51,514 nucleotides of DNA from an uncultured Gammaproteobacteria bacterium (GTDB lineage Bacteria > Patescibacteriota > Microgenomatia > UBA1406 > GWC2-37-13): positions 1 to 51,514 of the forward strand of contig CAZPYR010000001.1 of the NCBI GenBank assembly GCA_964590815.1, given 5' to 3'. A program made the position numbers and the translations under genes. Position 1 is the stretch's first letter. Every line of letters begins with the position of its first letter. Under the pieces are notes generated by a model. The model saw nothing but the letters and a program-made list of their open reading frames with translations. It was not told the DNA's origin and made no database searches. This document shows, piece by piece, positions 14,499 to 51,514 of this stretch.

Positions 14499-15096
14499 TA
14501 GAAAGACTTCTCCACAATAATAAAGAGGCATATGTCCGATAAGGTGACCATATATGAGAAATATTCTCTAGTTCAGCTATTGTTGGCTCATGTGAAATTT
14601 TGTATAATTTTTGTATACCTCTTTTGAGACCTAAATCTTTTGTAGAAAAAATATCTTCACGTCCTAGAGTAAACATGAGAAACATTTCAACAGTCCAGGG
14701 ACCAATACCTTTTACTTTAGTGAGTTCTTTCATAATTTCATCCGCAGACTTGGAAGAAAGTGTATCCAGTTGTATCTCTTTAGTTGTAACTTTTAAAGAA
14801 AGATCATGGATATAGCGGGCCTTAGAACCTGAAAGGCCGATAGAACGTAATATATCTGGTTGCATTATTATTGCAAAATTTGCTGAAACTTGCTCTTGTG
14901 GGAATAAAGACTTAAATCTACCCCAGATGGCATCACCTGCCTTGGTAGAGATCTGTTGACTGATAATAGATTCACAAAGAGCTGAAAAATATTCCGCTTT
15001 AGGTGTAATGTAGATTGGACTTTGCAAAAGGGAAATAGCATTATACAGAATAGGATCCACTTTTTGGAAATGTTGTGCTACATGTTTGGGGATCAT
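14491..15096 (-). CDS. HhH-GPD DNA glycosylase (3-methyladenine DNA glycosylase II/AlkA-like)
   Basis: LTKVKGIGPWTVEMFLMFTLGREDIFSTKDLGLKRG is a helix-hairpin-helix followed by the catalytic Asp. Confidence 0.8.
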   Translation of the reverse strand: MIPKHVAQHFQKVDPILYNAISLLQSPIYITPKAEYFSALCESIISQQISTKAGDAIWGRFKSLFPQEQVSANFAIIMQPDILRSIGLSGSKARYIHDLSLKVTTKEIQLDTLSSKSADEIMKELTKVKGIGPWTVEMFLMFTLGREDIFSTKDLGLKRGIQKLYKISHEPTIAELENISHIWSPYRTYASLLLWRSLSTK

Positions 15097-26006: not shown

Positions 26007-26508
26007 GTTTTTGTATTTTAGGATCAATCACAATCTGGCAATAAGGGTATTCTCTATTGTCTTTATAATAATTTTTATGATAGTCTTCAGCTTCATAAAA
26101 ACTGGTATAAGGTGATATTTCAGTCACAATAAGATCTTCATATTCTTTTTGTATTTCCTGTTTGGTTTTTTCAGCAATTATTTTTTGCTCGTTATTATGG
26201 AAAAAAATGACAGATCGGTACTGTGTTCCGACATCTGCACCTTGTTTATTGAGGGTTGTGGGATTATGAATATGCCAGAAAACATATAAAATTTCCTCAT
26301 ATGAAATTTCTTGTGAGTCAAATTCTATTTGTATCACTTCCGCATGCCCAGTATTACCGGCAGATACTTCGTCGTATGAAGGATGTGGCAATTCTCCTCC
26401 CGAATACCCAGAAGTGACTTTTTTTATGCCCTTAAGTTGCTGAAAGACAGCTTCACTGCACCAGAAACAGCCCATGCCAAGTGTCGCTTTTTGTAGAGTG
26501 TTTGTCAT
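25972..26508 (-). CDS. msrA: Peptide methionine (S)-sulfoxide reductase
   Basis: ATLGMGCFWCSEAVFQ and GHAEVIQIEFD. Confidence 0.95.
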   Translation of the reverse strand: MTNTLQKATLGMGCFWCSEAVFQQLKGIKKVTSGYSGGELPHPSYDEVSAGNTGHAEVIQIEFDSQEISYEEILYVFWHIHNPTTLNKQGADVGTQYRSVIFFHNNEQKIIAEKTKQEIQKEYEDLIVTEISPYTSFYEAEDYHKNYYKDNREYPYCQIVIDPKIQKLKLIAKNHLVP

Positions 26509-26518
26509 AAGATGGATA

Positions 26519-26920
26519 TTACTTTTTTATAAAATTCAAAGCCAACGAATTTATACAGTAGCGTTGTCCTGTTTTATCCGTTGGGCCATCGGGGAAGACA
26601 TGTCCAAGATGTGCACCACATGTTTTACAGGTTACTTCAGTTCTATTCATGCCATAGCCAGTATCTTCATGAAGTTCAACCGCATCACTGTTTGCAACAT
26701 CATAAAAACTTGGCCAACCAGAGTCAGAATCAAATTTGGTATCTGATGTAAAGAGGGTGGCTCCACAGTTGGAGCACGTATACAATCCAGTTTCTTTATT
26801 ATGCAAAAGTTTGCCACTCCCTGGAGGTTCGGTGCCTTTTTCCCGAGTTACATGATAGACCTCGGGTGTGAGCTTTTTCTTCCATTCATCAACTGTTTTG
26901 TATTTTTTTTGAGTAGTCAT
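26519..26920 (-). CDS. msrB: Peptide methionine (R)-sulfoxide reductase
   Basis: Two CxxC pairs (CSNCG and CKTCG), GWPSF and the catalytic RYCINS. Confidence 0.95.
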   Translation of the reverse strand: MTTQKKYKTVDEWKKKLTPEVYHVTREKGTEPPGSGKLLHNKETGLYTCSNCGATLFTSDTKFDSDSGWPSFYDVANSDAVELHEDTGYGMNRTEVTCKTCGAHLGHVFPDGPTDKTGQRYCINSLALNFIKK

Positions 26921-31858: not shown

Positions 31859-34483
31859 TTATCGATTCTGTTTTTTTGTATTATTGATTGTTTTTATTTT
31901 TTGTTGAAGTGACTGTCTCAATTTTCTTAGTTTAGCTTCTTCGGCTGGGTCATTACATTCTATAATTCGAAAATCAAATTCACGTAGGGTATCTTCTGAA
32001 GTTGCGAGAATAATTTCAAGTATATTTTGTCTACTTGTGGTTCTATGTATAGCGCGCCAATCTATACCTTGAACTGAATTATTACTTATTATATTATCGA
32101 TAACACTAAGTAAACTATTTGGATTAGTGAAATGTTCTAAAAATGACTGATGATCTAGTAAATTTAAACAATCTTTATAGTAATTAGCACTAGTGCGAAT
32201 ATAGTCTTGGCCATAATCACCCCGTTCTACACGAATAAAATTACTCACGCTGTGTCCCGTTACACCCATTAAAAATTCTTCATATGTGTCAAGCATCTCT
32301 CTTTTGCTTTCCATAGGGATAGCTGCAGTTTTAGTAAATGATTTTAAAAATCCTACGATATATATAATCTCATAACTTAATTGTGCAGATGTTGTATATA
32401 TACCACTATTGAGCAAAAGTGTTTTGAAAGGTTCAAGCATTTCTTCACTTAAATCAGGTGCTTCTCGTGTCAAAGCTACTATTGTTGAATACAATGTGCT
32501 GTAGGGAAAATCAGTTTCTACATAACGATTAGGATCTTTAATTTTATCAGTATCAATTTCAGTAAGACGCAAAACCTTTGCTGGCTCATTAAGCAAATGA
32601 TTCATGAGTGTCGTAACTGCATATTGCCTAACCGTTGCAATATTTACAAGTGCTTGATCCAATATTGCAATGGTTGAATTGCCTTCACTGTCCTCAGGAC
32701 GAAGTGTCTGCCTTAAATTGTCTATCCACATTCGTCCTTGGAACAACGCATCTGTTTGTGCTGCTACAACTGTCTGTAATTCAAATGCTGCTGCAGGATT
32801 TGTCAAAGCCTGCTGTGCTAATACATCTGTTGCTTGATTAATAATAGCGACATATCCATCCCCAACTTCACGATTAGTAGGATCATTATGTGCTGCAGTT
32901 AAAATAGTAGTTAGAAATTTTCCCCAGGGATTATTTCCATTTATTCCTTCCATACTATTTATGGAAAGATCTAAGATTGGAGCTTGTTGACGACCCTCAT
33001 TGGTCAAAAGTTGCTTTTTGTAATGTTCCATAAAAAAAGGTCTAGCATATGCTTGTAAAGTATTTTGTCTCCAATAGTTTTTGATCAGATGTGCTGCTGT
33101 ACCATTTCCATTATAGTTATTTCCTGCTTCTTGATTATAAAGATTATCTGTATGCCTTTTAGTTTCCATGGCATTATTAAATTTGGGATCAGTTGTAAAC
33201 GCACATTGAACGTCTTGGCTCATGGGGAAGGCGAGAGCAAGTGCAGTGTAGGGAGCCATTTTGTTTGATTTAGTTGCTATGTCTCTTATAGATGTATTTA
33301 TTTTCTCAACCAACTGTTTTTTATGATGTGTAAGGCGAGTTCCTTCACCTTCTGTTTCAATAAGTGCAATATTAGTCATAATTTTTTTTATAGCTGCAAG
33401 TCGAGGATTTCCTATTTCCTTTATTAAGGATGGAAGATGTTGAATTTGTTCTGGTCCAATAAGAGGAAGATGGCTTGCAGGTAATTCGCCTTTTTGACTA
33501 TATACATTTAAATTTCTTTCTATTTCCAGTGCTCTGCCCATGATGAGGATTTGCCATAATGGTTTTAATTGACTATTCTCATCTAAAATCATCTCATTTA
33601 TAAATTTTTTTCTATCCTTTGGTTCCAAATGTGATAGGGACTTTTTACCTTGAATAACAGGGTCCTGCTGAAGGTATGGAGGTAATTGATAAATTGATGC
33701 AGCCGCACGATCAAGTGTCTGTAACTCTTGCTTTCCTATAGATTTATTTAAAATTCTTCGAGATTGTAAATCATACAAAGATGGTAGTAGAGGCATCATG
33801 GTAGCATGTTCTTGAATAAGAGCAGGAAGAACTTCCATTTTTCTTCCATGCAGAGTGTTCACAGCATGCCAGTGCTTTATGCCTGTAGCAATTACCCCTA
33901 AAGCGCCAGCGGCAGCTAAAGCACTACCTGATTCTGGATAAGAAGAAGAGGTGAGACTGCCAGTAAGCATAACAGAACCACTAGCTATACCCGATTTTAT
34001 AAACATATCTATAAGTTGATCTTTACCCATTCCCTCAATACTGTGTAATCCTTCTCCTCTCAGTACATCAAACAATATGTTAGGACTTACCCCTTGCTCC
34101 TCAAATATTTTGCGGAGTGAGGTAACACTTTGTGCTGTAGCTAAAGACCTTACTTCTCCAATTTGGCTTAGATCGGCTGACTGTCCAATAGTATAGCGAT
34201 TATAACGTTTAGTAATCGGTGTTACCACAGCCACAGGATATATAGCTTGTAGTATTTCCTCAGTTACTTCGGGAGTGTTTGCAAATATTGAAATTCCCGC
34301 GGCAGTAATCCCCATATTAAGAGCTTTTCCAGCAGGACTGTTCATAAGCGCAATAACTGTATCTAACTGTCTAGATTCGGGTCCTTCAAAAAACTCTAAA
34401 GCTCTTTCTTTTATACGACCTACCCCTCCATAATATGGATCGCCAGAGAATAACTGTGCTGTGATTTCGGGAAGTCGACTCAT
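31859..34483 (-). CDS. Hypothetical protein, 874 aa, predicted mostly helical, no recognisable domain
   Basis: A long ORF with a -10-like TATAAT 8 nt upstream of its ATG. Gly/Ala-rich hydrophobic stretches lie in the first ~200 aa (NMGITAAGISIFA and SGIASGSVMLTGSL...SALAAAGALGVIATGI). Confidence 0.6.
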   Translation of the reverse strand: MSRLPEITAQLFSGDPYYGGVGRIKERALEFFEGPESRQLDTVIALMNSPAGKALNMGITAAGISIFANTPEVTEEILQAIYPVAVVTPITKRYNRYTIGQSADLSQIGEVRSLATAQSVTSLRKIFEEQGVSPNILFDVLRGEGLHSIEGMGKDQLIDMFIKSGIASGSVMLTGSLTSSSYPESGSALAAAGALGVIATGIKHWHAVNTLHGRKMEVLPALIQEHATMMPLLPSLYDLQSRRILNKSIGKQELQTLDRAAASIYQLPPYLQQDPVIQGKKSLSHLEPKDRKKFINEMILDENSQLKPLWQILIMGRALEIERNLNVYSQKGELPASHLPLIGPEQIQHLPSLIKEIGNPRLAAIKKIMTNIALIETEGEGTRLTHHKKQLVEKINTSIRDIATKSNKMAPYTALALAFPMSQDVQCAFTTDPKFNNAMETKRHTDNLYNQEAGNNYNGNGTAAHLIKNYWRQNTLQAYARPFFMEHYKKQLLTNEGRQQAPILDLSINSMEGINGNNPWGKFLTTILTAAHNDPTNREVGDGYVAIINQATDVLAQQALTNPAAAFELQTVVAAQTDALFQGRMWIDNLRQTLRPEDSEGNSTIAILDQALVNIATVRQYAVTTLMNHLLNEPAKVLRLTEIDTDKIKDPNRYVETDFPYSTLYSTIVALTREAPDLSEEMLEPFKTLLLNSGIYTTSAQLSYEIIYIVGFLKSFTKTAAIPMESKREMLDTYEEFLMGVTGHSVSNFIRVERGDYGQDYIRTSANYYKDCLNLLDHQSFLEHFTNPNSLLSVIDNIISNNSVQGIDWRAIHRTTSRQNILEIILATSEDTLREFDFRIIECNDPAEEAKLRKLRQSLQQKIKTINNTKKQNR

Positions 34484-37399: not shown

Positions 37400-38104
37400 T
37401 TATTTTTTACCAGTTAGTAATTTTCTATTGGTTTCACGAACAGCGATTGCCGGCAGGGATTTGTTATTTTTTGATACGTATTCAGCTATTTGTATGTTAA
37501 ATTTTTTGGTACATTCACGTAAAGCCCAGGAAATAGCTTTCGTAATTAGAATGTCTTTTTCCTGTTTGAGAATTTCTATATTTTGTATGGCGAGATTATA
37601 AACTCGAATATCGGTGGTTTGACGAAGAGGTTTGCAAAGGAGGACGAGACTTGCTCTTCGATGATTGATATTGGCATGTTTGGCAAAGCGGGTTAGACCT
37701 TTGTTCCAAAGATTCCAGTTTTCTATTAATATATTCTCGTTTAGTCTGTTTTGACAAAGTGTATCTATCTCACACCAGCCTTCAAGGCTATAGAGCCATG
37801 TTTGTATATGATCAGGAGTAATTAATGATGCACTATGTTTATAGGAGTTTAATAAAAATGATCCAATTGTTTTTTCCTCAAAACTAATACCTCTCATGAG
37901 ATGGGTAACTACTTGTATCATATCTTCAAAACGTAAGTCTGGGTGTTTAAGAAAAAAAGATTTTGCGATATCTGTCTTGGCTTTTGTAGATAATCCTACA
38001 TATGGATGTTTTGTTCCCATATAGCGCTCAGGATTAAAACCCTTTAGTGGTTTTGTTGGAGCATTTTTTATAGATTCACGTATCTCTTCTGCAAGATCGC
38101 ACAT
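37400..38104 (-). CDS. DNA alkylation repair protein (AlkD-like HEAT-repeat family)
   Basis: EGWCEIDTLC...NHRRASLVLL...ITKAISWALRECTKK matches the family pattern. The start is moved to ATG 38104 (MCDLAEEI), which has a TATAAT 6 nt upstream. Confidence 0.7.
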   Translation of the reverse strand: MCDLAEEIRESIKNAPTKPLKGFNPERYMGTKHPYVGLSTKAKTDIAKSFFLKHPDLRFEDMIQVVTHLMRGISFEEKTIGSFLLNSYKHSASLITPDHIQTWLYSLEGWCEIDTLCQNRLNENILIENWNLWNKGLTRFAKHANINHRRASLVLLCKPLRQTTDIRVYNLAIQNIEILKQEKDILITKAISWALRECTKKFNIQIAEYVSKNNKSLPAIAVRETNRKLLTGKK

Positions 38105-38130
38105 AATTATATTATATATAATAGGACCAT

Positions 38131-39093
38131 ATGGAATCTTGTTTACCATCTGCTTTTATAGAAAAAATACAAATATTCTTTGGTGATAAGGCGAGTTCTA
38201 TACTGGAATCTTTTGGAAAAAAAAGGAGTATCAATGTACGCGTAAATATACTTCGCGCGTCTATAAAGGAGATTGAAGACTTTTTTAAAAAGAACAACAT
38301 CATTTATATTGTTATCTCAGCTGTACCTTTGGCATTTGTGTTGCCCAACATAACCACCAGAGATGTTACAGACTTAGAAATATATAAAGAAGGAAAAATA
38401 TATATACAGTCGCTCTCAAGTATGTTACCTGTCTTGGTGTTAGATCCTCAACCAGGAGATCATATCCTTGATATGGCGGCGGCACCGGGTAGCAAAACTT
38501 CACAGATTGCGGCTTACACAGCAAATGGAGCAGAAATCGTCGCAAACGATATAGATAGAGGACGATTATATAAACTAAAGGCTATTATGGCACAACAAGG
38601 TTGTGAACACATTACCGTTACAAGTATCCCAGGCCAAACTATTTGGCAACAATATCCCGAATATTTTGATAAAGTACTACTTGACGCTCCATGTAGTATG
38701 GAAGGTCGATTTGATTGCCAAGATAAAAAGAGCTATAAACATTGGTCAACTAAAAAAGTCAAAAATCTTGCTCGGCTTCAACAATGGCTTTTACGATCAG
38801 CGCTAAGCAGTACGAAAGTAGGTGGTACTATAGTGTATTCAACTTGTACCATTTCACCGGAAGAAAATGAAGGTGCGGTGAACTGGTTGCTGGAAAAGGA
38901 AAAAAATGCAGTAATAGTCGAAGATATAGCATTATCCGATTTGCCTATGCATAATGGTTTTACTACATGTGGAAATACTCACTATTTGCCTCAACTTATT
39001 AAAACTAAAAGAATAATACCCACAGAATATTATGAAGGATTTTATGTGGCAAAGTTGAAAAAAATACAATCGACTGTCAAAAGACTCTCATAA
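38131..39093 (+). CDS. RsmB/RsmF (NOL1/NOP2/Sun) family RNA cytosine-C5 methyltransferase
   Basis: LDMAAAPGSKTSQIA, LLDAPCSMEGR and YSTCTISPEENE. Confidence 0.85.
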   Translation: MESCLPSAFIEKIQIFFGDKASSILESFGKKRSINVRVNILRASIKEIEDFFKKNNIIYIVISAVPLAFVLPNITTRDVTDLEIYKEGKIYIQSLSSMLPVLVLDPQPGDHILDMAAAPGSKTSQIAAYTANGAEIVANDIDRGRLYKLKAIMAQQGCEHITVTSIPGQTIWQQYPEYFDKVLLDAPCSMEGRFDCQDKKSYKHWSTKKVKNLARLQQWLLRSALSSTKVGGTIVYSTCTISPEENEGAVNWLLEKEKNAVIVEDIALSDLPMHNGFTTCGNTHYLPQLIKTKRIIPTEYYEGFYVAKLKKIQSTVKRLS

Positions 39094-40232: not shown

Positions 40233-41141
40233 ATGACGGTAACACAGATACGACCGGATTTTGATTATCTCAAACAAAAGTGGAATGAACGTCACACAGA
40301 AATTATAGAGACATTTCATGAAAAGCATAAAGAATCTCTGGATTGGCTCAGTTTTAATTCAAAACAATTCATGCTTGGTTCTATGGCTGGTTTAGTTATG
40401 TTATCACATCCTGCTGTATCTCCTATTTACGCAGAACGATTGCTTCCAGCGCCTACTAAGAATTCAACGGATACCGCACAGGTTGCTCAACATAATCCAA
40501 GAACACAAGCAAACCTCATATCAGATTTGGCGCCATTATTGCCCTCCGCAGTACAATCGCTTTCCACAGAACAGGAAATGCAGATAGCACAAAAATTGTC
40601 AGATTATTTTCAAATGTCTGTTAGTCCGATTTTACAAGGAAAACGTCTCAATAGAAGCTATGGTATTATAGGTGCCGAACAACATTTGATGCGCTATCCT
40701 GGGGATACAATGGAAACGCATTTTACTTCAGAAGAAGATAAACGATATTGGTCTTCAGGCATGGCTCCAGGGAGAGGAGCCTGGGGGTATTTTGCAGATT
40801 CTGCTGATACTATGTCGCCAAAAGATATTGAGAGAGAGAAATATTATATTGCTGTGCAGTCTTTTTTAGCCCCAGGGTGGAATGAAAATGTAAATGAATT
40901 ATATGCTTTTTTTAAATATCGAAAAATGCTCGTGGTAAACCCAGAGAATGGTAAAGCTATAGTAGTCGTAATAGGCGATGCAGGCCCTGCCGAGTGGACC
41001 GGTAAACATCTTGGTGGTTCTCCGGAAGTTATGATGCACCTTGAACGACAGGATGGAGGAGCTCGGGGGCCAGTGTTATATTATTTCATTGATGATCCCG
41101 AAGACAAGATACCTCTGGGTCCAGTTATGCCTCATAATTAA
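40233..41141 (+). CDS. Hypothetical membrane-anchored protein, possibly with a C-terminal RlpA/DPBB-like barrel
   Basis: One TM segment near residues 45-62. The C-terminal KMLVVNPENGKAIVVVIGDAGPAEWTGKHLGGSPEVMMHL resembles RlpA-like double-psi beta-barrels. The similarity is weak and judged by eye. Confidence 0.4.
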   Translation: MTVTQIRPDFDYLKQKWNERHTEIIETFHEKHKESLDWLSFNSKQFMLGSMAGLVMLSHPAVSPIYAERLLPAPTKNSTDTAQVAQHNPRTQANLISDLAPLLPSAVQSLSTEQEMQIAQKLSDYFQMSVSPILQGKRLNRSYGIIGAEQHLMRYPGDTMETHFTSEEDKRYWSSGMAPGRGAWGYFADSADTMSPKDIEREKYYIAVQSFLAPGWNENVNELYAFFKYRKMLVVNPENGKAIVVVIGDAGPAEWTGKHLGGSPEVMMHLERQDGGARGPVLYYFIDDPEDKIPLGPVMPHN

Positions 41142-42427: not shown

Positions 42428-42997
42428 ATGAAGATTATATTAGGTTCGCAATCAAAAGGTAGAGCACAAGTGCTTATCCAAGCAGGCTATAAATTTAATA
42501 TAATGCATGCGTCTATTGATGAAAAAGCGATACGTTCTGAAAATTTTCAGGAAATGACTCTTCTCATTGCTCAAGCAAAGGCTCAGGTGTTACTACCTCA
42601 AATATCAGAGCCAGCATTGCTGATCACCGCAGACCATGTTATGGTTTGGAATGGAGAGCTGCGTGAGAAACCACAATCCATAGAAGAAGCAAAGAGATTT
42701 TTAGAAACATATTCCAATAATTTTGCTGTATCAATTTCATCTGTTGTGGTTACAAATACACAAACACTTATACAAAAATCTGGTACCGATATATCTAAAG
42801 TTTTTTTTAAAGAAATACCTACACAGGTCATAACTTCAATTTTGCAAGAAGATGATATCTTGTCAATGTCGGGAGCCTTAAATATAGATGATGTTAAGAT
42901 TGCACCTTACATTGATAGAATAGAGGGAGACAGAGACAGCGTGATAGGTTTGCCATTGAAATTGTTTGAGAAGTTATTGGTAGAATTACAAAATTAA
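42428..42997 (+). CDS. maf: Maf-like nucleoside-triphosphate pyrophosphatase
   Basis: ILGSQSKGR at the N-terminus, ITADHVMV, and the C-terminal RIEGDRDSVIGLP. Confidence 0.8.
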   Translation: MKIILGSQSKGRAQVLIQAGYKFNIMHASIDEKAIRSENFQEMTLLIAQAKAQVLLPQISEPALLITADHVMVWNGELREKPQSIEEAKRFLETYSNNFAVSISSVVVTNTQTLIQKSGTDISKVFFKEIPTQVITSILQEDDILSMSGALNIDDVKIAPYIDRIEGDRDSVIGLPLKLFEKLLVELQN

Positions 42998-43752
42998 ATA
43001 CTTGTCCATCCTCCATCTACAATAAGTGTCTGCCCCGTCATAAAACTCGATGCATCTGATGCAAGGTACACAAGCGCGCCATCGAGTTCACCTTCTCTTC
43101 CAATTCTTTTCATAGGAGAAAATGTTTGTATAAACTGATTAAATTCTTCAGTCTCCAAGTCATCAGAAGTCATTTCTGTTTTAAAAAATCCAGGCGCAAT
43201 ACTATTGACGGTAATATTATATTTAGCCCATTCTATCGCTAAAGCTTTGGTTAAACCTATGACTCCATGTTTTGAAGCATGATAATTGGCAAGAGGGTAC
43301 ATAGTATTCGCTACAAAACCATACATAGAGCTAATATTTACAATTTTGCCATATTTTTTTTCAATCATATGTCTGCCTACTGTGCTAGACATCATAAAAA
43401 CACTGCGAAGATTTACATCAAGCACCTTATCCCATTCCTGCATAGTCAACTGTTCGCTTGGGGCCGTATTGACGGCTCCTGCATTATTGACTAAAATATC
43501 TATCTTGCCACATTTTTTTATAATAGCATCTATTGCTTCATTCACTAAATTTTCATTAGTTACATCACAACATATAGCTATACATACGGAACCTTTTTTT
43601 TCTAGATTCTGTTTGACAGAGCGCAGCTTATCTTCACTTCTTGCTAAGATTGCAACAGATGCTCCTTGCTTTGCTAAAGCCTGAGCAAACTGTATACCCA
43701 ATCCACTAGAGGCCCCAGTGATAACTGCAACTTTTCCTGTAAGATCAAACAT
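42994..43752 (-). CDS. Short-chain dehydrogenase/reductase
   Basis: TGASSGLG, NNAG and YHASK. The start is moved to ATG 43752 (MFDLTGK), because 43758 is a TTG. Confidence 0.9.
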   Translation of the reverse strand: MFDLTGKVAVITGASSGLGIQFAQALAKQGASVAILARSEDKLRSVKQNLEKKGSVCIAICCDVTNENLVNEAIDAIIKKCGKIDILVNNAGAVNTAPSEQLTMQEWDKVLDVNLRSVFMMSSTVGRHMIEKKYGKIVNISSMYGFVANTMYPLANYHASKHGVIGLTKALAIEWAKYNITVNSIAPGFFKTEMTSDDLETEEFNQFIQTFSPMKRIGREGELDGALVYLASDASSFMTGQTLIVDGGWTSI

Positions 43753-43794
43753 ATTCAAATAGTATAACGATTTGTTATGAAAACTGTGAGAGAC

Positions 43795-44514
43795 TTAATG
43801 TTTTGAATATGTACCAAATGGATATGAAATTTTGTCTGCTAAATTGTATGCTCCAAATATAAAACAAAAAGATAACAAGATATAGGTAGTAAGTGTTTGC
43901 CATATTCCGTATTTTTCAAATCGTCGAGGGGAAACATGTATTTTTGTTGAAAGAATTCTGAACTTACCAAAATGAGCTGCTTTGCGAATAAAATAGATAT
44001 CATCATAGGTGTAGTCTTCTTTAAAGCCATCTGTATGCCTAAGAATTTTTTTTGTTGCAACAATACAAGATCCGGCACCTGATGGCAGAACCCATTGTGC
44101 CAGATAAAACAGTCCATTAAAAAACTGGTATATTTTTTTTATTCGCCTATCTTTAGTAATTGGGTCGTAAATGGGACAGGCTATATCAAGTTCTTTTTCA
44201 GTAAAATCATTCAAACTGTCTTTAATAAAAGTCGGTGAGCAACGGGTATCTGCGTCTAAAAAAACAACAATATCACTCACTGATTTTTGCCAGCCCGTAT
44301 TCCTTTGTTGTCCTATATTAGGTTTTTTATTATATAAACAAATATTCTGTATTAATTTAATTATTTTTCTAGTGTTATCGGTAGAACCTCCATCTACAAT
44401 GATTATTTCTTTGGGTTGAAATGTTTGTTTTTGCAAATCAGTGATAAGATTTTGAATATTTACTTCTTCATTAAGAGTAGGTATTACCACACTATATTCA
44501 GGAATTGTAGGCAT
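43795..44514 (-). CDS. Family 2 glycosyltransferase with C-terminal TM segment (candidate carotenoid glycosyltransferase)
   Basis: YSVVIPTLNEE, IIVDGGSTD and FLDADT. It is the last gene of the overlapping carotenoid operon. Confidence 0.8.
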   Translation of the reverse strand: MPTIPEYSVVIPTLNEEVNIQNLITDLQKQTFQPKEIIIVDGGSTDNTRKIIKLIQNICLYNKKPNIGQQRNTGWQKSVSDIVVFLDADTRCSPTFIKDSLNDFTEKELDIACPIYDPITKDRRIKKIYQFFNGLFYLAQWVLPSGAGSCIVATKKILRHTDGFKEDYTYDDIYFIRKAAHFGKFRILSTKIHVSPRRFEKYGIWQTLTTYILLSFCFIFGAYNLADKISYPFGTYSKH

Positions 44515-45322
44515 ACAGATATAATAAAAAACCTAATAAGCTTGTTATATAGGGAAAGCGCCAATACATTTGTATAAGCGAAATTCTGTTCGTTAAGACG
44601 AGTATGGCACAGATAGGATATACAAAGGCTAAAAAGAGAAGTGGAGAAATAATTACACTTAGGATGGCCATGCAAAGCCATAAAATCAAGCAAAGGTACA
44701 AGCTTTTATTTGTGCCTAACAGTACCGCAGTCGTTTGGATACCGGCTTCTTTATCATATTTTATATCCGGAATTGCCGAATATAGATGCATAGCTGCGGT
44801 CCATAGCAAAATTATGAGTATTACAATGAGAGGTGGAAAGTGGGATTGTAGTTGTGTAACTCCAATAAGTGCAGGAATACCATAAAGTATATTAGTTATA
44901 GAGTCGAAGAAGGGGCGGCTTTTAAATCGGAATGGAGGGGCACTATAGTAATAAGATAGCAATAAAAAAATAATAGTTAAAAAATTGCTGATAGCGTCTT
45001 GTAAAAAAAAGAGTGGTATAGTAAGCAATAAGGAAATTAAGACACTACGTTGATACAATATTAAAGTAGTATTTTGCGTAGCTTGTTCTTTAGAATTCTT
45101 TTTAGGATTGATCTTATCGGTCTCCATGTCATTTATATCATTCACTCCATATAAAAATATATTAGCGGGAATCAAGAAAAAAAGGAGAGAATACAAAAAG
45201 ACAGCATTTAGAAATGGTTCTCCGTGCTCGTATGCAAAAGTATAACCCAACAAGTATGGACCAGCCAAGTATATCCAAAATCTTGGACGAGACAATTTGA
45301 ATATAAGATTTGTTATTCTCAT
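44498..45322 (-). CDS. UbiA-family prenyltransferase, lycopene-elongase-like (CrtEb/LyeJ-like)
   Basis: LSRPRFWIYLAGPYLLG, LYGVNDINDMETDKINPKK, YSAPPFRFKSRP and SAIPDIKYDKEAGIQTTAV. As I recall them, these resemble the CrtEb/LyeJ motifs (SRPxxW..., YG(V/I)ND..D...D..NP(K/R)K). The gene is embedded between the polyprenyl synthase and GT2 genes. Confidence 0.65.
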   Translation of the reverse strand: MRITNLIFKLSRPRFWIYLAGPYLLGYTFAYEHGEPFLNAVFLYSLLFFLIPANIFLYGVNDINDMETDKINPKKNSKEQATQNTTLILYQRSVLISLLLTIPLFFLQDAISNFLTIIFLLLSYYYSAPPFRFKSRPFFDSITNILYGIPALIGVTQLQSHFPPLIVILIILLWTAAMHLYSAIPDIKYDKEAGIQTTAVLLGTNKSLYLCLILWLCMAILSVIISPLLFLAFVYPICAILVLTNRISLIQMYWRFPYITSLLGFLLYLYAYNS

Positions 45323-46371
45323 TTATTTCGTATTAAGTTGTATTTCACTAAATCCTGTAATATCTCTGTGGAAAGTCCCGCTTGTGCAAGAGCAGTTAAA
45401 GTTTCATGTATTCGATCAAGCCTTTTTTCAATTTCACGATTTATGAGAGTACGACCATGATAGCGCTCTACGCTTTCACGTACAAAGCGAAGTTCATCGG
45501 TAGAAATGGTACTTTTGCCAAAAATGGAAAGTAATTGCTGTTTATCTTTGCCAATAGCATTTTTAAACGTATACCATCGCAACAAGGTTTTTTTATTTTC
45601 ACGAATATCTGAACCGATTTGTTTGCCAATATCCTGTTCATTACCAAAAATACCCAAGTCATCATCCTTTAGTTGAAAAATAATACCCACATCTTCCCCG
45701 AACTGTTTGAGTAGAGATATGTCTTGTTTTACTCCAAATAATGATCCCAATATGAGAGGTACAGAAAAAGAATAGTGTGCTGTTTTATATAGGTACTTTT
45801 TGTATATTTCAACTTCGTTAGGTTCGGTTGCAGTCATGCCATGTGCTGTATCTGCCATTTGTGCAGGTCCCACAAGTTGAAATTCTTCGCTTGTAATCTG
45901 GACAATACTTCGCAATATAGCATTGTCAACTATGTACTTAGTCAATATTTCAAATCCCAGGAAAAAACATATGTCTCCCACACAAAGACCCATTGACTGA
46001 CCATATAATAGAGGGTTTTTGGCCTTATATTGTTCTCCTTCCTTCATGTATTGATAAAACACAGATTCTTTATTCCGTCTTTTGAAATCATTATCCATGA
46101 TATCATCATGTATAAGCAACCCTGTATGAAATATCTCAATAGCAGAAGCTGTGGCAAAAACTTCTTCATCTATGGTCTTTCCATGGATTTCAGCACCAAG
46201 TAGAACCAGCATGCCGCGTATCATTTTGCCATCTGTGACGCAATCTTTCACTTTTTGTAGTGCATTTTTTGCCTCGTGCATTGGAGAAGTCGCGATCTTG
46301 GCGTCCATACACGTATTTATGAATGATTCAAGTTGTGCTCGGTGTTGAGATATAAATTCAATAAAGGTCAT
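45319..46371 (-). CDS. Polyprenyl diphosphate synthase (GGPP-synthase-like)
   Basis: FARM motif LLIHDDIMDND and SARM motif FQLKDDDLG. No aromatic residues at -4/-5 before the FARM motif. Confidence 0.85.
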   Translation of the reverse strand: MTFIEFISQHRAQLESFINTCMDAKIATSPMHEAKNALQKVKDCVTDGKMIRGMLVLLGAEIHGKTIDEEVFATASAIEIFHTGLLIHDDIMDNDFKRRNKESVFYQYMKEGEQYKAKNPLLYGQSMGLCVGDICFFLGFEILTKYIVDNAILRSIVQITSEEFQLVGPAQMADTAHGMTATEPNEVEIYKKYLYKTAHYSFSVPLILGSLFGVKQDISLLKQFGEDVGIIFQLKDDDLGIFGNEQDIGKQIGSDIRENKKTLLRWYTFKNAIGKDKQQLLSIFGKSTISTDELRFVRESVERYHGRTLINREIEKRLDRIHETLTALAQAGLSTEILQDLVKYNLIRNK

Positions 46372-47174
46372 ATAGTAAGTGAATGTTTAATAATAGTCGC
46401 AAAAATACGGAGTTTAGACGGTTTTAATTTTTTCTCAAACACAATGAGAGGGTTCTTATAAATTTCTTTTGCTGTCCAATAATACATTTGTGCTGCTGTC
46501 TGAATAGGAATTAAATATTTTTTAGGAATATATTTATATCCTTTTTCAGCTTCTTTTTGAATACTGAAATATCTTTCGATTTCATAACGTATAAGTAAAA
46601 TGAATTTTTCATTTTCTTGTTCATTTGTCGGTTGAATAGTTTGGAGTTTAAATTTTCGCAAATCCTCTTGTGGTATATACGTTCTCCCTAGATCAATATC
46701 TTCCTTAATATCTCGTATAAAATTAATAAGTTGCATAGCCTTACCTTGCAGTCCAGCATATTCAAATGATTCTTTTGGTAAGTCCATGATTGCAGCCATC
46801 ATATACCCTATGACATTTGCGGAGCCATATATATATTCTTCTAGCTCTTTATATGATTCGTAGGTAGTTTTATGTATATCAAGTTCCATAGAATGGAGGA
46901 AAGATATGTACCAATCTTTCTGAAAATTATTATCTTTTGCAAGCTTTAGGAACGCATCAATAATTTCGTTATTGGTCATGCCATTGACTGTTTGTTCTTT
47001 ATACTGAAAAAATGAGTGCATATCTACAGGCACCGTATCCACAAAATCATCTATTGTCCGTACATATGCATAGAGGTTAGTAACTTTATCTCGTATATCA
47101 GGAGGGAAAAAAATACTCGAAAAATAATATGTTTTACTTCCTTTTTTGAAAATAGTAGTTGCTTTATTGGTCAT
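46368..47174 (-). CDS. crtB: Phytoene/dehydrosqualene synthase (CrtB/CrtM family)
   Basis: YAYVRTIDDFVD and QLINFIRDIKEDIDLGRTYIP. I cannot decide between C40 and C30 specificity by eye. Confidence 0.85.
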   Translation of the reverse strand: MTNKATTIFKKGSKTYYFSSIFFPPDIRDKVTNLYAYVRTIDDFVDTVPVDMHSFFQYKEQTVNGMTNNEIIDAFLKLAKDNNFQKDWYISFLHSMELDIHKTTYESYKELEEYIYGSANVIGYMMAAIMDLPKESFEYAGLQGKAMQLINFIRDIKEDIDLGRTYIPQEDLRKFKLQTIQPTNEQENEKFILLIRYEIERYFSIQKEAEKGYKYIPKKYLIPIQTAAQMYYWTAKEIYKNPLIVFEKKLKPSKLRIFATIIKHSLTI

Positions 47175-48648
47175 TGCAAATGCGTTGAACTACTAACTCG
47201 GCGGATATCAAACACATAGGCATACCTATCCCGGGGTTTGTATATTGTCCCACATAATACATATTCTTTACCTTGCTACTTTTTTGTTTGGGTCGTAACA
47301 TCATGCTTTGTGTAACGCTTTGTGATAGGCCAATAGCCGTGCCTTTATAAGCATTAAACGTATCCTCAAAATCTGATACGGTAAAAATATGTTGTAATAC
47401 AATGTTTTTTTCAATAGATTCTTTTGTATATCGTTCTAATTTCCGTATTAAGTGGCTGGCATATTGTTCTTTTTCCTCTTTAGATATATTTATTCCTGCC
47501 GGTATAGCAGCGGTAATAAACAAATTTTCATGACCTTTAGGCGCAACTTGGGGATCGGTTTTTGAAGAACATGAGAAATAAATAAGTGGATCGTAAGGTA
47601 AGGATCTACCTTGAGCAATAGTCTCAAAATGACCACTCCAATCCAGAGGAAAATAATAATTATGATGAAGTAGAGACTTGAAAGTTCCTTTTGTTCCTAA
47701 ATATACAATAAAAGCCGAGGGCGCAATATTTTTTTTAGCCCAGTACGATTCGGGGTAGGTCTGCCATTCCTTTTCAAGAAGTTTAGTCTCAGTATATGGA
47801 TAATCGGCGTTAGAGATTACTAGATCGCATGTGAATTTTTGATTACCCACCCACACCTGTTTAGCATTATTCTTTGACACTTCTACTTTACTTACATCCA
47901 TGTTTGTTAGGATTTGTACGTTATGTTCTTTACATAGCGTTACTAGTGCTTGTATAAAGCTGTTGATCCCGCCAATAGGATACTCTACGCCAATAGCTAA
48001 ATCCAAATGAGTAAAGAGAGACATAAATCCTCGGGACTCTTTTGGATTCAGTCCAATAAATAATCCCTGATGCAGCAGTATCTGTTGTAATTTGTGATTG
48101 GTTACATATTGTTTTGTAAGCGATTCAAGGCTCTGAAATACTTTAAGAGTGCTTAGCTTTTTGCGTATTTCTGGATTTAAAAATGTTTTAAATGAATCTA
48201 GATCTTGATATAGTACGCAATCTCTCACCGTTTCATACTCATGTTTGCTTAATAGTAAATATTCTAGTATCTTTTTTGAAATACCAGGCTCCAGCGATTC
48301 GAAGGTAGCAAGATTTTTTTTTAAATCCCGCATGATGGTAATTATTGTTTCATCGGCAAAGAAAATTCGATATTGTGGATCTAATTTTTTGAGTGTGTAA
48401 TAATCTGCGGGAGATTTATTAAACAGAGAAAAAAAAGCTTTAAAAACCTCTGGCATGTGATACCAGGATGGTCCCATGTCAAATCTGAATCCATTCTGTT
48501 CATAGATCATAGCTCTACCTCCTACACAGTGATTTTTTTCAAGTATAGTAACGTTATAACCTTTTTTACCAAGTAGAGCAGCCGCAGCCAAACCTCCAAT
48601 ACCAGCGCCAATGATAATAATATTTTTTTGATTAGTCATAATCTTCAA
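47164..48648 (-). CDS. crtI: Phytoene desaturase (CrtI family)
   Basis: IIIIGAGIGGLAAAALL, FRFDMGPSWYHMPEVF and the C-terminal YYVGQYTNPGIGMPMC. Confidence 0.85.
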   Translation of the reverse strand: MKIMTNQKNIIIIGAGIGGLAAAALLGKKGYNVTILEKNHCVGGRAMIYEQNGFRFDMGPSWYHMPEVFKAFFSLFNKSPADYYTLKKLDPQYRIFFADETIITIMRDLKKNLATFESLEPGISKKILEYLLLSKHEYETVRDCVLYQDLDSFKTFLNPEIRKKLSTLKVFQSLESLTKQYVTNHKLQQILLHQGLFIGLNPKESRGFMSLFTHLDLAIGVEYPIGGINSFIQALVTLCKEHNVQILTNMDVSKVEVSKNNAKQVWVGNQKFTCDLVISNADYPYTETKLLEKEWQTYPESYWAKKNIAPSAFIVYLGTKGTFKSLLHHNYYFPLDWSGHFETIAQGRSLPYDPLIYFSCSSKTDPQVAPKGHENLFITAAIPAGINISKEEKEQYASHLIRKLERYTKESIEKNIVLQHIFTVSDFEDTFNAYKGTAIGLSQSVTQSMMLRPKQKSSKVKNMYYVGQYTNPGIGMPMCLISAELVVQRICNDQ

Positions 48649-50146
48649 GTATTCTCTCCGTAACTAGTTGTCCACTGGTTACACATGTAGGTAGGCCAGG
48701 ACCTGGGATAGTTGAACCACCGACATGATATAGATTGGTAAACTCCCGAGCTTTATTGGGCATTCTAAAATTATTAATCTGAAATATATCAAGGGAAAAA
48801 CCGAGAATTATATTTTCCCATAAGTTAAACTCTTTTCCCCAACGAGCTGGGCTATATATCTCTTCAACCTCAATAAGATCTCGAATTGGGATATTGTCTC
48901 TTTGTTCTATACAGTCATAAATAAGATTTTTAAAAGTCGATTCATATTCTATCCAGTTAAAATTTGGGTCATATCCACATACGGGGACAAGAATAAAAGC
49001 AGTCGCTTTACCTTCAGGCGCCATGTTTTGATCTGTAATCGAGGGTTGCATAATATAGTAGCACAAATTTTTTTTATTGAATTTAGTTGCAGAATTTGGC
49101 TCTAAAATGAGATTATAAAAATCATACCATTGTTCCGCTACCATAAAGGTATGATGGTTGATATTTGGTATTGCTTTGCGAAGACCTAAATTGATAGTGA
49201 AGTAACTGTTTGTGTGATTCATTTTTCTTAAGTGTGAATCTGTATAGATTGTATTCTTCTCAGCTGGCATGATATGTGTGTAAAAAAATGCAGCGTCAAT
49301 ATTATTGACTATAATGTCACAATTTTTGACGCCATTGGTTGTTATTACTCCCGTAATCTTTTTATTTGTATACACTAACTCTTTTACTTCGGTATTAAAT
49401 TCAAAGGTCACACCAAGCTCAAGAGCAAGTTTATAAAAACCTTGTACTAAATTGTAGGTGCCTCCATGTATGGCATACATACCATCTGTGATATTGGCCC
49501 AAGGAAGGAAAATATATGTTCCTAATGCGGTAGTTGGTCGCATTCCCATAAAAGTAGCCTGGTAGGAAAAAACAGCGCGGAGTTCGGGAGCGGTGAAACA
49601 CTCGTTTACAATTTGTTCCCAAGTTTTATGGATATAAAGTTTTTTTAGATGAGCAAAAACATTTCGATGTAATAGAAAATCAAAACCAAAAAATTTATGA
49701 TAATTCCGTTTGGCATACCCAGGCCCTTCATATAAAAGTGAATGAATATCTTTACCCATATTCATAAAACGATCGAATCCGTTTAGGTCTTGAGGAAAGG
49801 TTTTTTCAATCTCATCGCGTACATCTGTAAGCCCAGAGTATAAAGTGAATTTTTTATCATTGCTAAAACAGAATGTGGTATTGGTTTGCATTTTTTTCCA
49901 TTCAAAATAGTCTTTTCTATTTTTGCCAACAGAATGAAAAAAATCTTCATATACTTGAGATAAGGTAATAAAACTAGCACCTCCATCAAAAGTAAAACCG
50001 TCTTTTTTTATTTGAATTATTTTACCGCCGGGTTTTTCCTGTTTTTCTAAAACTTTGACGGAAAATCCTCGATATGCAAGCTGAATTGCAGCCGAAAGGC
50101 CACCGATACCTGCCCCTAAAATGATAATGTTTTTATCTGTTTTCAT
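48632..50146 (-). CDS. Second CrtI-family carotenoid desaturase/oxidase paralog (CrtD/CrtN/CrtP-like)
   Basis: IIILGAGIGGLSAAIQL, FTFDGGASFITL and the C-terminal YHVGGSTIPGPGLPTC. Confidence 0.8.
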   Translation of the reverse strand: MKTDKNIIILGAGIGGLSAAIQLAYRGFSVKVLEKQEKPGGKIIQIKKDGFTFDGGASFITLSQVYEDFFHSVGKNRKDYFEWKKMQTNTTFCFSNDKKFTLYSGLTDVRDEIEKTFPQDLNGFDRFMNMGKDIHSLLYEGPGYAKRNYHKFFGFDFLLHRNVFAHLKKLYIHKTWEQIVNECFTAPELRAVFSYQATFMGMRPTTALGTYIFLPWANITDGMYAIHGGTYNLVQGFYKLALELGVTFEFNTEVKELVYTNKKITGVITTNGVKNCDIIVNNIDAAFFYTHIMPAEKNTIYTDSHLRKMNHTNSYFTINLGLRKAIPNINHHTFMVAEQWYDFYNLILEPNSATKFNKKNLCYYIMQPSITDQNMAPEGKATAFILVPVCGYDPNFNWIEYESTFKNLIYDCIEQRDNIPIRDLIEVEEIYSPARWGKEFNLWENIILGFSLDIFQINNFRMPNKAREFTNLYHVGGSTIPGPGLPTCVTSGQLVTERILEDYD

Positions 50147-50724
50147 AATGATAAAGAACTTTTTTGATAGTTAGTTGCTACAGCTCGCAAAATAAAAGAG
50201 CTAATCATATTGATTATTTCGTTTCTTTTTTTGCCTACAGGTATATCTGGATAATATTCTAAAATAAAACCATTTATAGCGTGGGTGATCACTTTTGCAT
50301 CATGGTCAATGTTTGGGATTTTAAATAGTTTTTGTTTGAGACCTACTTCTAATACTTCTTTTATATGCAAATACCCTTTTTCAGGTATATAACCGCCTGC
50401 ATTCTTTTCAAAGGTAGGGCGATGTGTCATGAAATACTTCAATACAAAAATAACATCTTGTGCATGCTCAAACTGGAAATCAATACGTTGCAAAAGTAAC
50501 TTACGTGGATCCGAAACTGATGGTAATTTAGAACGTTCAATACCGAGTTGAGTATTTGTTGTATCAAAAGCTACCTTTAATAATTCATTTTTATTCTTGA
50601 AGTAGTAATATAGTACAGAAATACCTATACCACAAGCTTCTGCCAGCTGTCTCATAGAGAAGCTAATGATATTCTGAGCGTACAATTCTTTAGATTTCAA
50701 AAGTATGAGTTCCTTTGTATTCAT
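50143..50724 (-). CDS. TetR-family transcriptional regulator, first gene of the carotenoid operon
   Basis: N-terminal HTH FSMRQLAEACGIGISVLYYYFKNKNEL. Its stop overlaps the start of the next gene by 4 nt. Confidence 0.85.
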   Translation of the reverse strand: MNTKELILLKSKELYAQNIISFSMRQLAEACGIGISVLYYYFKNKNELLKVAFDTTNTQLGIERSKLPSVSDPRKLLLQRIDFQFEHAQDVIFVLKYFMTHRPTFEKNAGGYIPEKGYLHIKEVLEVGLKQKLFKIPNIDHDAKVITHAINGFILEYYPDIPVGKKRNEIINMISSFILRAVATNYQKSSLSL

Positions 50725-50726
50725 GA

Positions 50727-50744
50727 ATAGAACGTTCGATCTAT
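50727..50744. promoter_or_regulatory. Imperfect 18-bp palindrome, candidate TetR operator
   Basis: ATAGAACGTTCGATCTAT has 7 of 9 self-complementary pairs and contains the perfect 8-bp palindrome GAACGTTC (50730..50737). It begins 3 nt upstream of the tetR ATG, in the 79-bp region shared with the photolyase gene. Confidence 0.4.
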
Positions 50745-50803
50745 AGAGTATTTATTAATATAAATCTGTTATGATAAATTGTAATCAATCTATATTATGA
50801 CAT

Positions 50804-51514
50804 ATGAATTTGCAGCGTGTCTATAAAATAAATGGAAAATCGGAAGTAGCTGATAAAGCAGTAGCCTATTGGATGAGCAGAGATCAAAGAGTCGCTCATA
50901 ACTGGGCCTTGATATACGCTGCAGAAAAAGCTCAACAGTACAACATGCCTTTATATGTTTTTTTTGCATTAACTCCTTCATTTTTAGGAGCTACATGGAG
51001 ACAGTATGATTTCATGATACGTGGATTACAAGAGGTGGAAGAGCAACTACGTGCTTTAGGGATCGGTTTTGAAATAGTTTTACAAAATCCGGTCGAAGGG
51101 ATACCCGCTTTAGTAAAAAAATATGACATAGGGAGTTTAGTATGTGATTTTTCTCCTTTACGAATTGGGAGAGAGTGGAGGAAAGTGATCGGGAAAAAGA
51201 TACCGGTTGCTTTGTACGAAGTAGATGCCCATAATATTGTGCCTTGTCGTGTAGTAACTCAAAAAAAAGAGTATGCTGCTCGGACAATCCGGCCGAAAAT
51301 TCACGCTCTTCTGGATATTTTTATGGATTCTTTTCCTGATATGACAGTTTATGCAGGTAAAATAGTCTCCAAAATAACGGATTGGGAATATGTCTATCAA
51401 AAATTGCCTTGTGATAGAAGTGTGAAGCCCGTGGATTGGCTATCTCCTGGCTCTGAGGCAGCCCATAAGTTGTTAAATGACTTCATTTTACATCGATTAG
51501 AAACGTATAATGAT
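50804..51514 (+). CDS. phr: Class II CPD photolyase (N-terminal 237 codons; runs off the window end)
   Basis: Absent from the ORF track because it is open at the window edge. Translation reads MNLQRVYKINGKSEVADKAVAYWMSRDQRVAHNWALIYAAEKA...RQYDFMIRGLQEVEEQL...VCDFSPLRIGREWRKVI...YEVDAHNIVPC...KEYAARTIRPKI. This closely follows the class II photolyase N-terminal domain. Confidence 0.85.
   Translation, partial: MNLQRVYKINGKSEVADKAVAYWMSRDQRVAHNWALIYAAEKAQQYNMPLYVFFALTPSFLGATWRQYDFMIRGLQEVEEQLRALGIGFEIVLQNPVEGIPALVKKYDIGSLVCDFSPLRIGREWRKVIGKKIPVALYEVDAHNIVPCRVVTQKKEYAARTIRPKIHALLDIFMDSFPDMTVYAGKIVSKITDWEYVYQKLPCDRSVKPVDWLSPGSEAAHKLLNDFILHRLETYND

Follow-up and report, generated by a model that had tools for sequence, protein, structure and literature searches.

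A putative carotenoid operon of seven overlapping genes

We analysed a 51,514-nt stretch of DNA (contig CAZPYR010000001.1 of GenBank assembly GCA_964590815.1), hereafter the window, in which a putative carotenoid operon of seven genes occupies positions 43795-50724 of the minus strand. The same contig has been assembled independently, in the Logan assembly of SRR11088486 and in the NCBI metagenome-assembled genome (MAG) GCA_018003525.1. All seven open reading frames (ORFs) were confirmed intact by an ORF call on the window, and the ORF and family calls bear out the gene order and coordinates given in an earlier model-made annotation, which we call the sequence-only reading. The first gene encodes a TetR-family regulator (50143..50724; PF00440, 2.6e-08). 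It is followed by two CrtI-family flavoenzymes, the paralog CrtI2 (48632..50146; crtI_fam 326 bits), presumed to be an accessory desaturase, and CrtI1 (47164..48648; crtI_fam 442 bits), a phytoene desaturase of the c0507 ('CrtID') type that probably also acts as a 3,4-desaturase. They are followed by genes for a CrtB-like head-to-head synthase of the SQS_PSY family, presumed to make phytoene (46368..47174; PF00494, 1.9e-50), and a short-chain prenyl-diphosphate synthase (IDS), presumed to be a geranylgeranyl diphosphate (GGPP) synthase in the role of CrtE (45319..46371; PF00348, 1.5e-43). The operon ends with a LyeJ-type UbiA prenyltransferase, a homolog of the lycopene C5-elongase/1,2-hydratases (44498..45322; UbiA 3.5e-25), and a 239-aa family 2 glycosyltransferase (GT2) with a C-terminal hydrophobic helix, which is presumed to glycosylate a carotenoid 1-hydroxyl (43795..44514; PF00535 Glycos_transf_2, 2.3e-27).

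Each gene overlaps the next. The overlaps are, in order, 4, 17, 11, 4, 4 and 17 nt long, as the sequence-only reading had counted, and read ATGA, TTGAAGATTATGACTAA, ATGACCAATAA, ATGA, ATGA and ATGCCTACAATTCCTGA, so that ATGA makes up three of the six junctions. The ATG at 48639 is the more likely start of CrtI1, for which the gene callers give a protein of 491 aa and make the same choice on three contigs; from this start, the 17-nt overlap upstream of CrtI1 shortens to 8 nt (ATGACTAA). The genes are under purifying selection: measured against a relative with 80% identity, the ratio of nonsynonymous to synonymous substitution rates (dN/dS) is 0.09 for UbiA, 0.20 for GT2, and 0.11 for the short-chain dehydrogenase/reductase (SDR) gene that lies downstream of the operon.

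UbiA is a homolog of the LyeJ-type carotenoid elongases

UbiA scores 283.2 bits on NF009516 (PRK12875), the LyeJ-centred NCBIfam equivalog, and passes its cut-off of 205. Two sister models give 120 and 115 bits, and the models for MenA, UbiA, digeranylgeranylglyceryl phosphate (DGGGP) synthase, chlorophyll and heme prenyltransferases give at most 50 bits. A quinone or lipid prenyltransferase is thus rejected, and the proposal that this protein is a carotenoid elongase homolog holds. The sequence-only reading had likened it to both CrtEb and LyeJ. The LyeJ half of this likeness stands by the model scores and by a neighbour-joining tree, in which the window UbiA lies within the LyeJ clade and CrtEb lies outside; the CrtEb half does not, as UbiA fails the CrtEb-type model NF009608 (PRK13105; 120.5 bits, cut-off 217) and crtYe and crtYf genes are absent from the window and from all LyeJ-type loci.

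The two models were typed by proteins identified from their gene context. The prenyltransferase of an annotated crtI-prenyltransferase-cruF-crtB locus of Halocatena scored 426 bits on NF009516, and the UbiA protein (CrtEb) of the Arthrobacter crtE-crtB-crtI-crtYe-crtYf-crtEb cluster scored 470 bits on NF009608. From this typing with Halocatena LyeJ and Arthrobacter CrtEb, the window protein is classed as a LyeJ-type, not a CrtEb-type, carotenoid elongase homolog. It shares 38-39% identity with haloarchaeal proteins and 26-29% with Arthrobacter CrtEb.

The two sequence motifs that had been singled out in UbiA, KLSRPRFWIYLAGP and LYGVNDINDMETDKINPKK, are both present and fall in invariant columns of the family alignment. 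The invariant residues are S11, R12, F15, W16, N61, D62, D65, D69, N72, K74 and K75, and the second aspartate motif, D186/D190, is invariant as well. Among these, N61, D62, D65, D69, D186 and D190 are unchanged in 28 homologs, in LyeJ and in CrtEb, leaving the NDxxDxxxD and DxxxD motifs intact.

For the gene context, we used a survey of one genome per GTDB species, in which relatives of UbiA occur in at least 582 species genomes, and we read the gene order in the best 80 loci; individual loci are cited by number (L001 and so on). A c0507-type CrtI lies upstream of the elongase in the window cluster, in the order CrtI1-CrtB-IDS-UbiA, and the order CrtI1-CrtB-(IDS)-UbiA is kept in most of the best 80 related loci.

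Two CrtI-family paralogs and two synthases precede the elongase

On NF058655, the CrtID equivalog, CrtI1 scores 549 bits; a Halocatena protein (749.5 bits) and a Methanobacterium protein (659 bits) pass this model. Neighbour-joining trees group CrtI1 with the haloarchaeal and methanogen CrtID proteins and leave Arthrobacter CrtI, CrtI2 and CrtP-like proteins outside. CrtI1 adjoins CrtB upstream of the elongase in most of the best 80 loci, those of Halobacteria included. The haloarchaeal protein c0507 of Haloarcula japonica, formerly called CrtD, is now shown to have both CrtI and CrtD activities (PMC11946383). CrtI1 belongs to the c0507 clade, with a predicted role as a desaturase, and the plain 'CrtI' label of the sequence-only reading is narrowed to this clade by the models and the tree.

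The second paralog, CrtI2, shares no more than 26% identity with CrtI1. A tight set of 33 relatives matches it at 53-95% identity, those with names being Patescibacteria, after which the identity drops to 32% or less. It forms its own clade with the proteins of L005 and L009 and is also present in L165 and L166. By these comparisons, CrtI2 is a deeply divergent branch of the CrtI family confined to the Candidate Phyla Radiation (CPR), not the CrtD-like protein suggested at first. On the model of the c0507/d1086 pair of Ha. japonica, we would read it as a desaturase that is either redundant or specialised. Several of its nearest named relatives (~29-31% identity) are annotated 'diapolycopene oxygenase', but a CrtP-type oxygenase is not supported: CrtI1 matches the same proteins equally well (30%, 244 bits), and CrtI2 branches outside their group. 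In one CPR relative (L167, 4229-5669), the CrtI2 ortholog is apparently frameshifted, its coding sequence being divided over two frames at about residue 145; this locus has no TetR, and its other operon genes are intact. The split is either an assembly error or the natural loss of the accessory paralog.

The CrtB-like protein passes a single family model, Pfam SQS_PSY (172 bits). It reaches 126 bits on HpnD (cut-off 279), and phytoene and dehydrosqualene synthases in the PDB match it equally weakly. Its identity is 41-56% with the CrtB that this module has in other phyla and 26-31% with haloarchaeal CrtB.

The IDS scores 149 bits on polyprenyl_synt; its best NCBIfam matches are IdsA and GGPP-synthase types, all below their cut-offs, and its best PDB match is the GGPP synthase of P. 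horikoshii (1wy0). The first aspartate-rich motif (FARM) is DDIMD, with no insertion, and the variant second motif (SARM), DDxLG, resembles the DDFLS of CrtE in the Arthrobacter C50 cluster. The cluster includes an IDS gene in 22 of the 30 bacterial loci, as against 2 of the 51 archaeal ones, both from Woesearchaeota (DPANN) (Fisher p=3e-11). This mostly bacterial occurrence agrees with a demand for GGPP in cells that have no archaeal lipid pathway as its source.

A small glycosyltransferase stands in the slot of CruF

No CruF (PF04240) was found in the window by tblastn with six queries (E>0.1), and neither CrtYe/Yf nor a lycopene cyclase is present there; the lack of CruF and CrtYe/f had been noted correctly in the sequence-only reading. 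In the survey, 42 of the 80 loci have CruF at a distance of up to 8 kb from the elongase. Of the 30 bacterial loci, 12 have a GT2 of the window type immediately downstream of the elongase, and no archaeal locus has one there; among these 30 bacterial loci the GT2 (12) and CruF (8) never occur together (P=0.0075, with the relatedness of the loci ignored). The loci that carry the GT2 are labelled CPR, Armatimonadota and Weeksellaceae, many of these labels being doubtful. In L005 and L009, the order is CrtI2-CrtI1-CrtB-IDS-UbiA, with CruF in the slot that GT2 has in the window. Locus L165 (70% identity) has the window architecture in full, including a photolyase gene.

The elongase-linked GT2s make up a conserved subfamily that shares 41-71% identity with the window GT2; DAD (the DxD motif), IPTLNE, GAGS and SDRRFR are conserved in 12 of these homologs. 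The nearest model for the window GT2 is TIGR04283 (117 bits, cut-off 182), and its PDB matches are polysaccharide synthases. The CruG model NF045692 (cut-off 600) gives it 47 bits, and the match is limited to residues 6-110. A single-sequence AlphaFold model of GT2, with a predicted local distance difference test (pLDDT) score of 44, was too poor for use. A scan of metagenome contigs from the Joint Genome Institute (JGI) returned distant GT2 relatives only (28-36% identity), with a carotenoid context in 0-1 of 80, and neither widened nor contradicted the association of GT2 with the elongase.

The known carotenoid enzymes of this fold, CruC, CruG and CrtQ, act on membrane-embedded carotenoids and have roughly 375-390 aa; CruC attaches its sugar to a tertiary 1'-hydroxyl, which is also the type of acceptor that we propose for the window GT2. 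With its 239 aa, the window protein is smaller than these enzymes, and its weak match to CruG covers the N-terminal nucleotide-binding part; it belongs to none of their families. We found no identified bacterioruberin glycosyltransferase in the literature; according to one paper (PMC10991996), bacterioruberin is glycosylated by GT-2 enzymes 'unique to C50 carotenoids', and the source that the paper cites gives no support for this.

Two further observations concern GT2 genes. In two CPR relatives, a polysaccharide deacetylase gene (PF01522) follows the elongase-linked GT2 (L167, 10558-11433; L168, 4714-5589). This neighbour hints at an N-acetylhexosamine as the transferred sugar, with deacetylation at a later stage. 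On the Halocatena salina plasmid NZ_CP096020.1 (L084, 1453-2133), a 226-aa TIGR04283-like GT2, 29% identical to the window GT2, is encoded on the opposite strand, at a distance of 1.3 kb upstream from a crtI-lyeJ-cruF-crtB cluster of the canonical haloarchaeal form.

A proposed route to a glycosylated, C5-elongated carotenoid

From the gene content, the clade assignments and the position of GT2, we consider it fairly probable that the operon makes an acyclic, C5-elongated (C45 or C50) and glycosylated carotenoid of the bisanhydrobacterioruberin type. In the proposed pathway, the dedicated IDS would provide GGPP, and the CrtB-like synthase would join two GGPP into phytoene, the presumed C40 backbone. 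CrtI1 would turn phytoene into lycopene and later introduce the 3,4 double bonds, and the CPR-specific CrtI2 would probably share or back up these desaturations. UbiA would then add a C5 unit derived from dimethylallyl diphosphate (DMAPP) at C-2 and water at C-1 of one or both psi-ends, leaving tertiary 1-hydroxyl groups. In the last step, the membrane-anchored GT2 would place a sugar on the 1-hydroxyl; in haloarchaea, CruF instead hydrates the added C5 units. The elongase-made 1-hydroxyl is the expected acceptor because, in GT2-bearing loci that have neither CrtI2 nor CruF, the core module makes one oxygen function only. The supply of precursors is plausible, since most Microgenomates encode enzymes of the mevalonate pathway (PMC6107057). 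GT2 had been listed as a component of the pathway on sequence grounds, and its exclusivity with CruF adds support to that placement.

Several observations weigh against this assignment. The bacterial subclade of the LyeJ family has no characterised member. CrtI1 stays under the NF058655 cut-off of 640, the CrtB-like protein scores 78-90 bits on the CrtB equivalogs NF042419, NF045686 and NF045921 (cut-offs 480-550), and it is no nearer to phytoene synthase than to dehydrosqualene and presqualene synthases. In the model scan, GT2 showed no match to CruC, CrtQ or CrtX and joined no known carotenoid glycosyltransferase family, and L166 has the operon without GT2. CruF or the isopentenyl diphosphate (IPP) pathway could lie elsewhere in the genome, outside the 51.5-kb window. 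Finally, the function at the level of the family is not fully secure because the module also occurs in strict anaerobes without known carotenoids.

The best-surviving alternative, which we regard as unlikely, keeps the C45/C50 product of the bisanhydrobacterioruberin type and leaves it unglycosylated: GT2 would serve a polyprenyl-phosphate sugar or an envelope glycan and merely travel with the cluster. This would agree with the resemblance of GT2 to generic GT-A enzymes, seen in its TIGR04283-like score and its polysaccharide-synthase matches, with its distant relatives outside carotenoid contexts, with the persistence of the operon in L166, and with the polysaccharide deacetylase that follows GT2 in L167 and L168. 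Against it stand the 17-nt overlap of GT2 with the elongase gene, which points to translational coupling, the adjacency of GT2 and the elongase in 12 of the 30 bacterial loci, the conservation of the LyeJ-linked GT2s as a subfamily, and the strict exclusivity of GT2 with CruF, an enzyme that acts on the elongase product. We therefore prefer a carotenoid glycosyltransferase.

Much less likely still is that the CrtI-CrtB-UbiA module makes no coloured carotenoid and, for example, prenylates and hydrates the ends of other head-to-head or polyprenyl lipids for membrane adaptation. Such a role would explain the module in strict anaerobes: often together with CruF, it is found in Methanobacterium and other methanogens, Bathyarchaeia and Asgard archaea, and methanogen carotenoids are undescribed (PMC9410494). 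A phytoene-desaturase homolog of Methanosarcina acetivorans is also reported to take part in hydroxyarchaeol synthesis (Mori et al. 2015, cited in PMC9128505). Conversely, haloarchaeal members of the same protein clades are tied experimentally to bacterioruberin (PMC11946383; Yang et al. 2015, cited in PMC9258230), the bacterial module adjoins a photolyase gene in several loci, and CrtI-type desaturation followed by LyeJ chemistry requires a lycopene-like psi-end, all of which favour a carotenoid.

A C30 staphyloxanthin-like route, in which CrtM, CrtN, a CrtP-type oxygenase and a CrtQ-type glycosyltransferase would be represented by the SQS_PSY protein, CrtI1, CrtI2 and GT2, respectively, is the least credible of the three, as the sequence-only reading had anticipated: the near-equal match of the SQS_PSY protein to dehydrosqualene synthases and the oxygenase annotations among relatives of CrtI2 speak for it, but CrtI1 falls in the C40 CrtID clade, the LyeJ-type elongase and the dedicated IDS would be left unexplained, neither an aldehyde dehydrogenase nor a CrtO-type acyltransferase is found in the window, and CrtI2 is wholly lacking from the GT2-bearing loci in other phyla.

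Relation to known carotenoid systems

Among known systems, the bacterioruberin pathway of haloarchaea comes closest; in Ha. japonica it comprises CrtB, c0507/d1086 (CrtI and CrtD), LyeJ and CruF. It shares with the window the elongase family, the CrtI clade upstream of the elongase, and an acyclic backbone with no cyclase (PMC11946383). In contrast to this pathway, the window has no CruF and carries the small GT2 in its slot, its CrtB belongs to another lineage, and it adds a GGPP-type synthase of its own, TetR and the CPR-only CrtI paralog. The expected product would accordingly differ, being a glycoside of the bisanhydro stage and not bacterioruberin.

Recently, lyeJ, crtD and cruF were predicted for bacterioruberin synthesis in Candidatus Patescibacteria of Lake Baikal (2023; PMC9948471). 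The superphylum, lyeJ and crtD are common to both cases, and both are predictions from sequence. The Baikal genes are scattered or lie on separate reads and include cruF, whereas the window has a single compact operon without it.

Actinobacterial C50 pathways resemble the window in having a CrtE-like synthase of similar motif pattern and C5 elongation by a UbiA protein. Glycosylated C50 end products are known from these pathways (PMC10991996 and PMC3598387), and Arthrobacter has bacterioruberin glycosides (PMC10991996). Unlike the decaprenoxanthin route (crtE-crtB-crtI-crtYe-crtYf-crtEb), the window has an elongase that fails the CrtEb model and lacks CrtYe/Yf genes.

The flavobacterium Jejuia pallidilutea makes the C45 carotenoid 2'-isopentenylsaproxanthin, which has been identified chemically (PMC4256183). 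Its 'phytoene dehydrogenase plus lycopene elongase' locus is similar to the window in that a C5-elongated carotenoid is made outside Actinobacteria (PMC4256183). This carotenoid is, however, monocyclic and elongated at one end, the strain has cyclase and hydroxylase genes, and no GT2 is reported beside the elongase.

Set beside these systems, the elongase-coupled GT2 subfamily, the predicted glycosylated bisanhydro-type product and the CPR-only CrtI paralog appear to be new, the chemistry being our reading of the genes.

Distribution of the elongase module

The bacterial loci among the best 80 come from CPR, Armatimonadota, a Weeksellaceae MAG (Bacteroidota), Limisphaerales and Anaerolineae, and the archaeal ones from Woesearchaeota, Nanohaloarchaea, Asgard archaea, Bathyarchaeia, Thermoplasmata, many methanogens and Halobacteria. 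The sequence-only reading had taken C50 carotenoids to be essentially restricted to haloarchaea and Actinobacteria and such a pathway to be unexpected in this lineage. This view is weakened by the at least 582 species genomes, by the 2023 report on Patescibacteria (PMC9948471) and by the C45 carotenoid of a flavobacterium (PMC4256183). The survey suggests that genes for C5-elongated carotenoids are far more widespread than the textbook 'haloarchaea and Actinobacteria'.

A broader interpretation goes beyond the operon itself. It is conceivable, if somewhat short of an even chance, that an ultra-small CPR cell, unable to build fatty-acid membrane lipids on its own, makes an undescribed C50 glycoside of the bisanhydrobacterioruberin type by means of a new family of small GT2 enzymes that replaces CruF, and that the LyeJ module is an ancient and widespread membrane-pigment system that extends into methanogens and Asgard archaea and is not peculiar to halophiles and actinobacteria. 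If so, some CPR bacteria invest in a membrane-spanning glycosylated C50 pigment of their own, which would bear on membrane stabilisation and on the survival of reduced cells under light and oxygen. It would also define a new carotenoid glycosyltransferase family of ~240 aa and offer a compact cassette of six enzymes, beginning with the GGPP synthase and ending with the glycosyltransferase, for possible transfer to hosts for C50-glycoside production.

In addition to the bacterial loci, we noticed a full bacterioruberin-like gene set in a cultured methanogen with a complete genome, Methanobacterium sp. ACI-7 (NZ_CP166866.1; L070, 5701-9586). The set consists of CrtID (659 bits, which exceeds the cut-off of 640), a gene for a CrtB-like protein, a LyeJ-type UbiA (349 bits) and CruF (171 bits on Pfam). 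A similar set is present in many methanogen MAGs (L022, L030, L042, L049, L066, L072, L027, L069, L076, L034 and L050). According to a 2022 review, carotenoids of methanogens are unstudied and none has been described (PMC9410494).

In seven archaeal loci (L008, L019, L036, L041, L044, L051 and L055), a second, divergent pair of SQS_PSY and CrtI-family genes lies on the opposite strand upstream of the CrtID-LyeJ module. This second SQS_PSY, found in Asgard and unclassified archaea, is 24-28% identical to the window CrtB, and the pair may represent a separate squalene or C30-type route. A MAG labelled Weeksellaceae (L004, 4055-9531) carries TetR-CrtI1-CrtB-IDS-UbiA-GT2, nearly the architecture of the window. 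Its TetR is 57% identical to that of the window, which exceeds the 45-51% of its enzymes; this suggests that the cluster passed as a whole from one phylum to another or that the contig was binned wrongly.

Host and genomic surroundings

The window has a G+C content of 35%. When its GltX was compared with 8000 relatives, the closest named ones were all Candidatus Roizmanbacteria or Microgenomates group (60-71% identity), and the host is therefore assigned to a Roizmanbacteria-like CPR bacterium (Patescibacteria, Microgenomates). Cluster-bearing MAGs labelled 'Gammaproteobacteria' include L003, L005, L016, L020, L024, L026, L028, L029, L040, L047, L057, L058, L060, L062, L077 and L082, and these labels look unreliable. 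For L003 at least, labelled 'uncultured Gammaproteobacteria', the label is doubtful, because its proteins are 80-89% identical to those of the window and the window GltX points to Roizmanbacteria.

Divergent from the operon, on the plus strand, lies the 5' part of a DNA photolyase gene (50804..51514; 237 codons), whose frame stays open through the end of the window; on the same contig in L001 the gene is complete (439 aa, PF00875 match). A photolyase gene adjoins the carotenoid cluster in eight loci, six of the first 84 loci plus L165 and L167, which fits photoprotection. Damage-repair genes are concentrated near the operon: we found genes for an HhH-GPD glycosylase, MsrA, MsrB, a DNA-alkylation repair protein and the photolyase at 14491-15096, 25972-26920, 37400-38149 and 50804-51514. 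The divergent photolyase, the neighbouring MsrA/MsrB and the DNA-repair genes suggest a role of the pathway in photo-oxidative protection and in the membrane, the link to light being inferred.

Between TetR and the photolyase gene is an AT-rich intergenic region of 79 bp (50725..50803), presumed to hold the promoter and the operator. The best sigma-70-like match on the operon strand is TAGACA-18-TGCATAAT at 50823-50794; in the promoter and terminator scans, the match counts were not above those of shuffled sequence. No clear palindrome for a TetR operator was seen in the 79-bp spacer, which has imperfect inverted repeats only. TetR homologs (38-70% identity) head the cluster in L004, L013, L057, L058, L062, L077, L165 and L166.

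Downstream of GT2, the SDR gene (42994..43752, minus strand; adh_short_C2, 4.8e-66) encodes an oxidoreductase that scores 288 bits on NF006070, a gluconate-5-dehydrogenase subfamily model with a cut-off of 279. The spacing of 36 nt given earlier holds only for a TTG start at 43758; from the ATG at 43752, the gap to GT2 is 42 nt. The terminator scan showed no terminator-like site between the two genes, and the SDR gene is possibly co-transcribed with the operon. It is kept downstream only in the closest relatives, L003, L165 and L166, the last of which retains it despite having no GT2, and it is absent from L167, L168 and all more distant clusters.

Among the other window genes are those for glycolytic enzymes, two-component kinases, ClpB and MsrA/MsrB, and several whose proteins have no family. 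Four sizeable ORFs of 439, 629, 874 and 302 aa (5255-6574, 24117-26006, 31859-34483 and 40233-41141) have no Pfam or NCBIfam match. The ClpB homolog (21839-23980, 713 aa) aligns to the ClpB model from position 146 onward and thus lacks the N-terminal domain.

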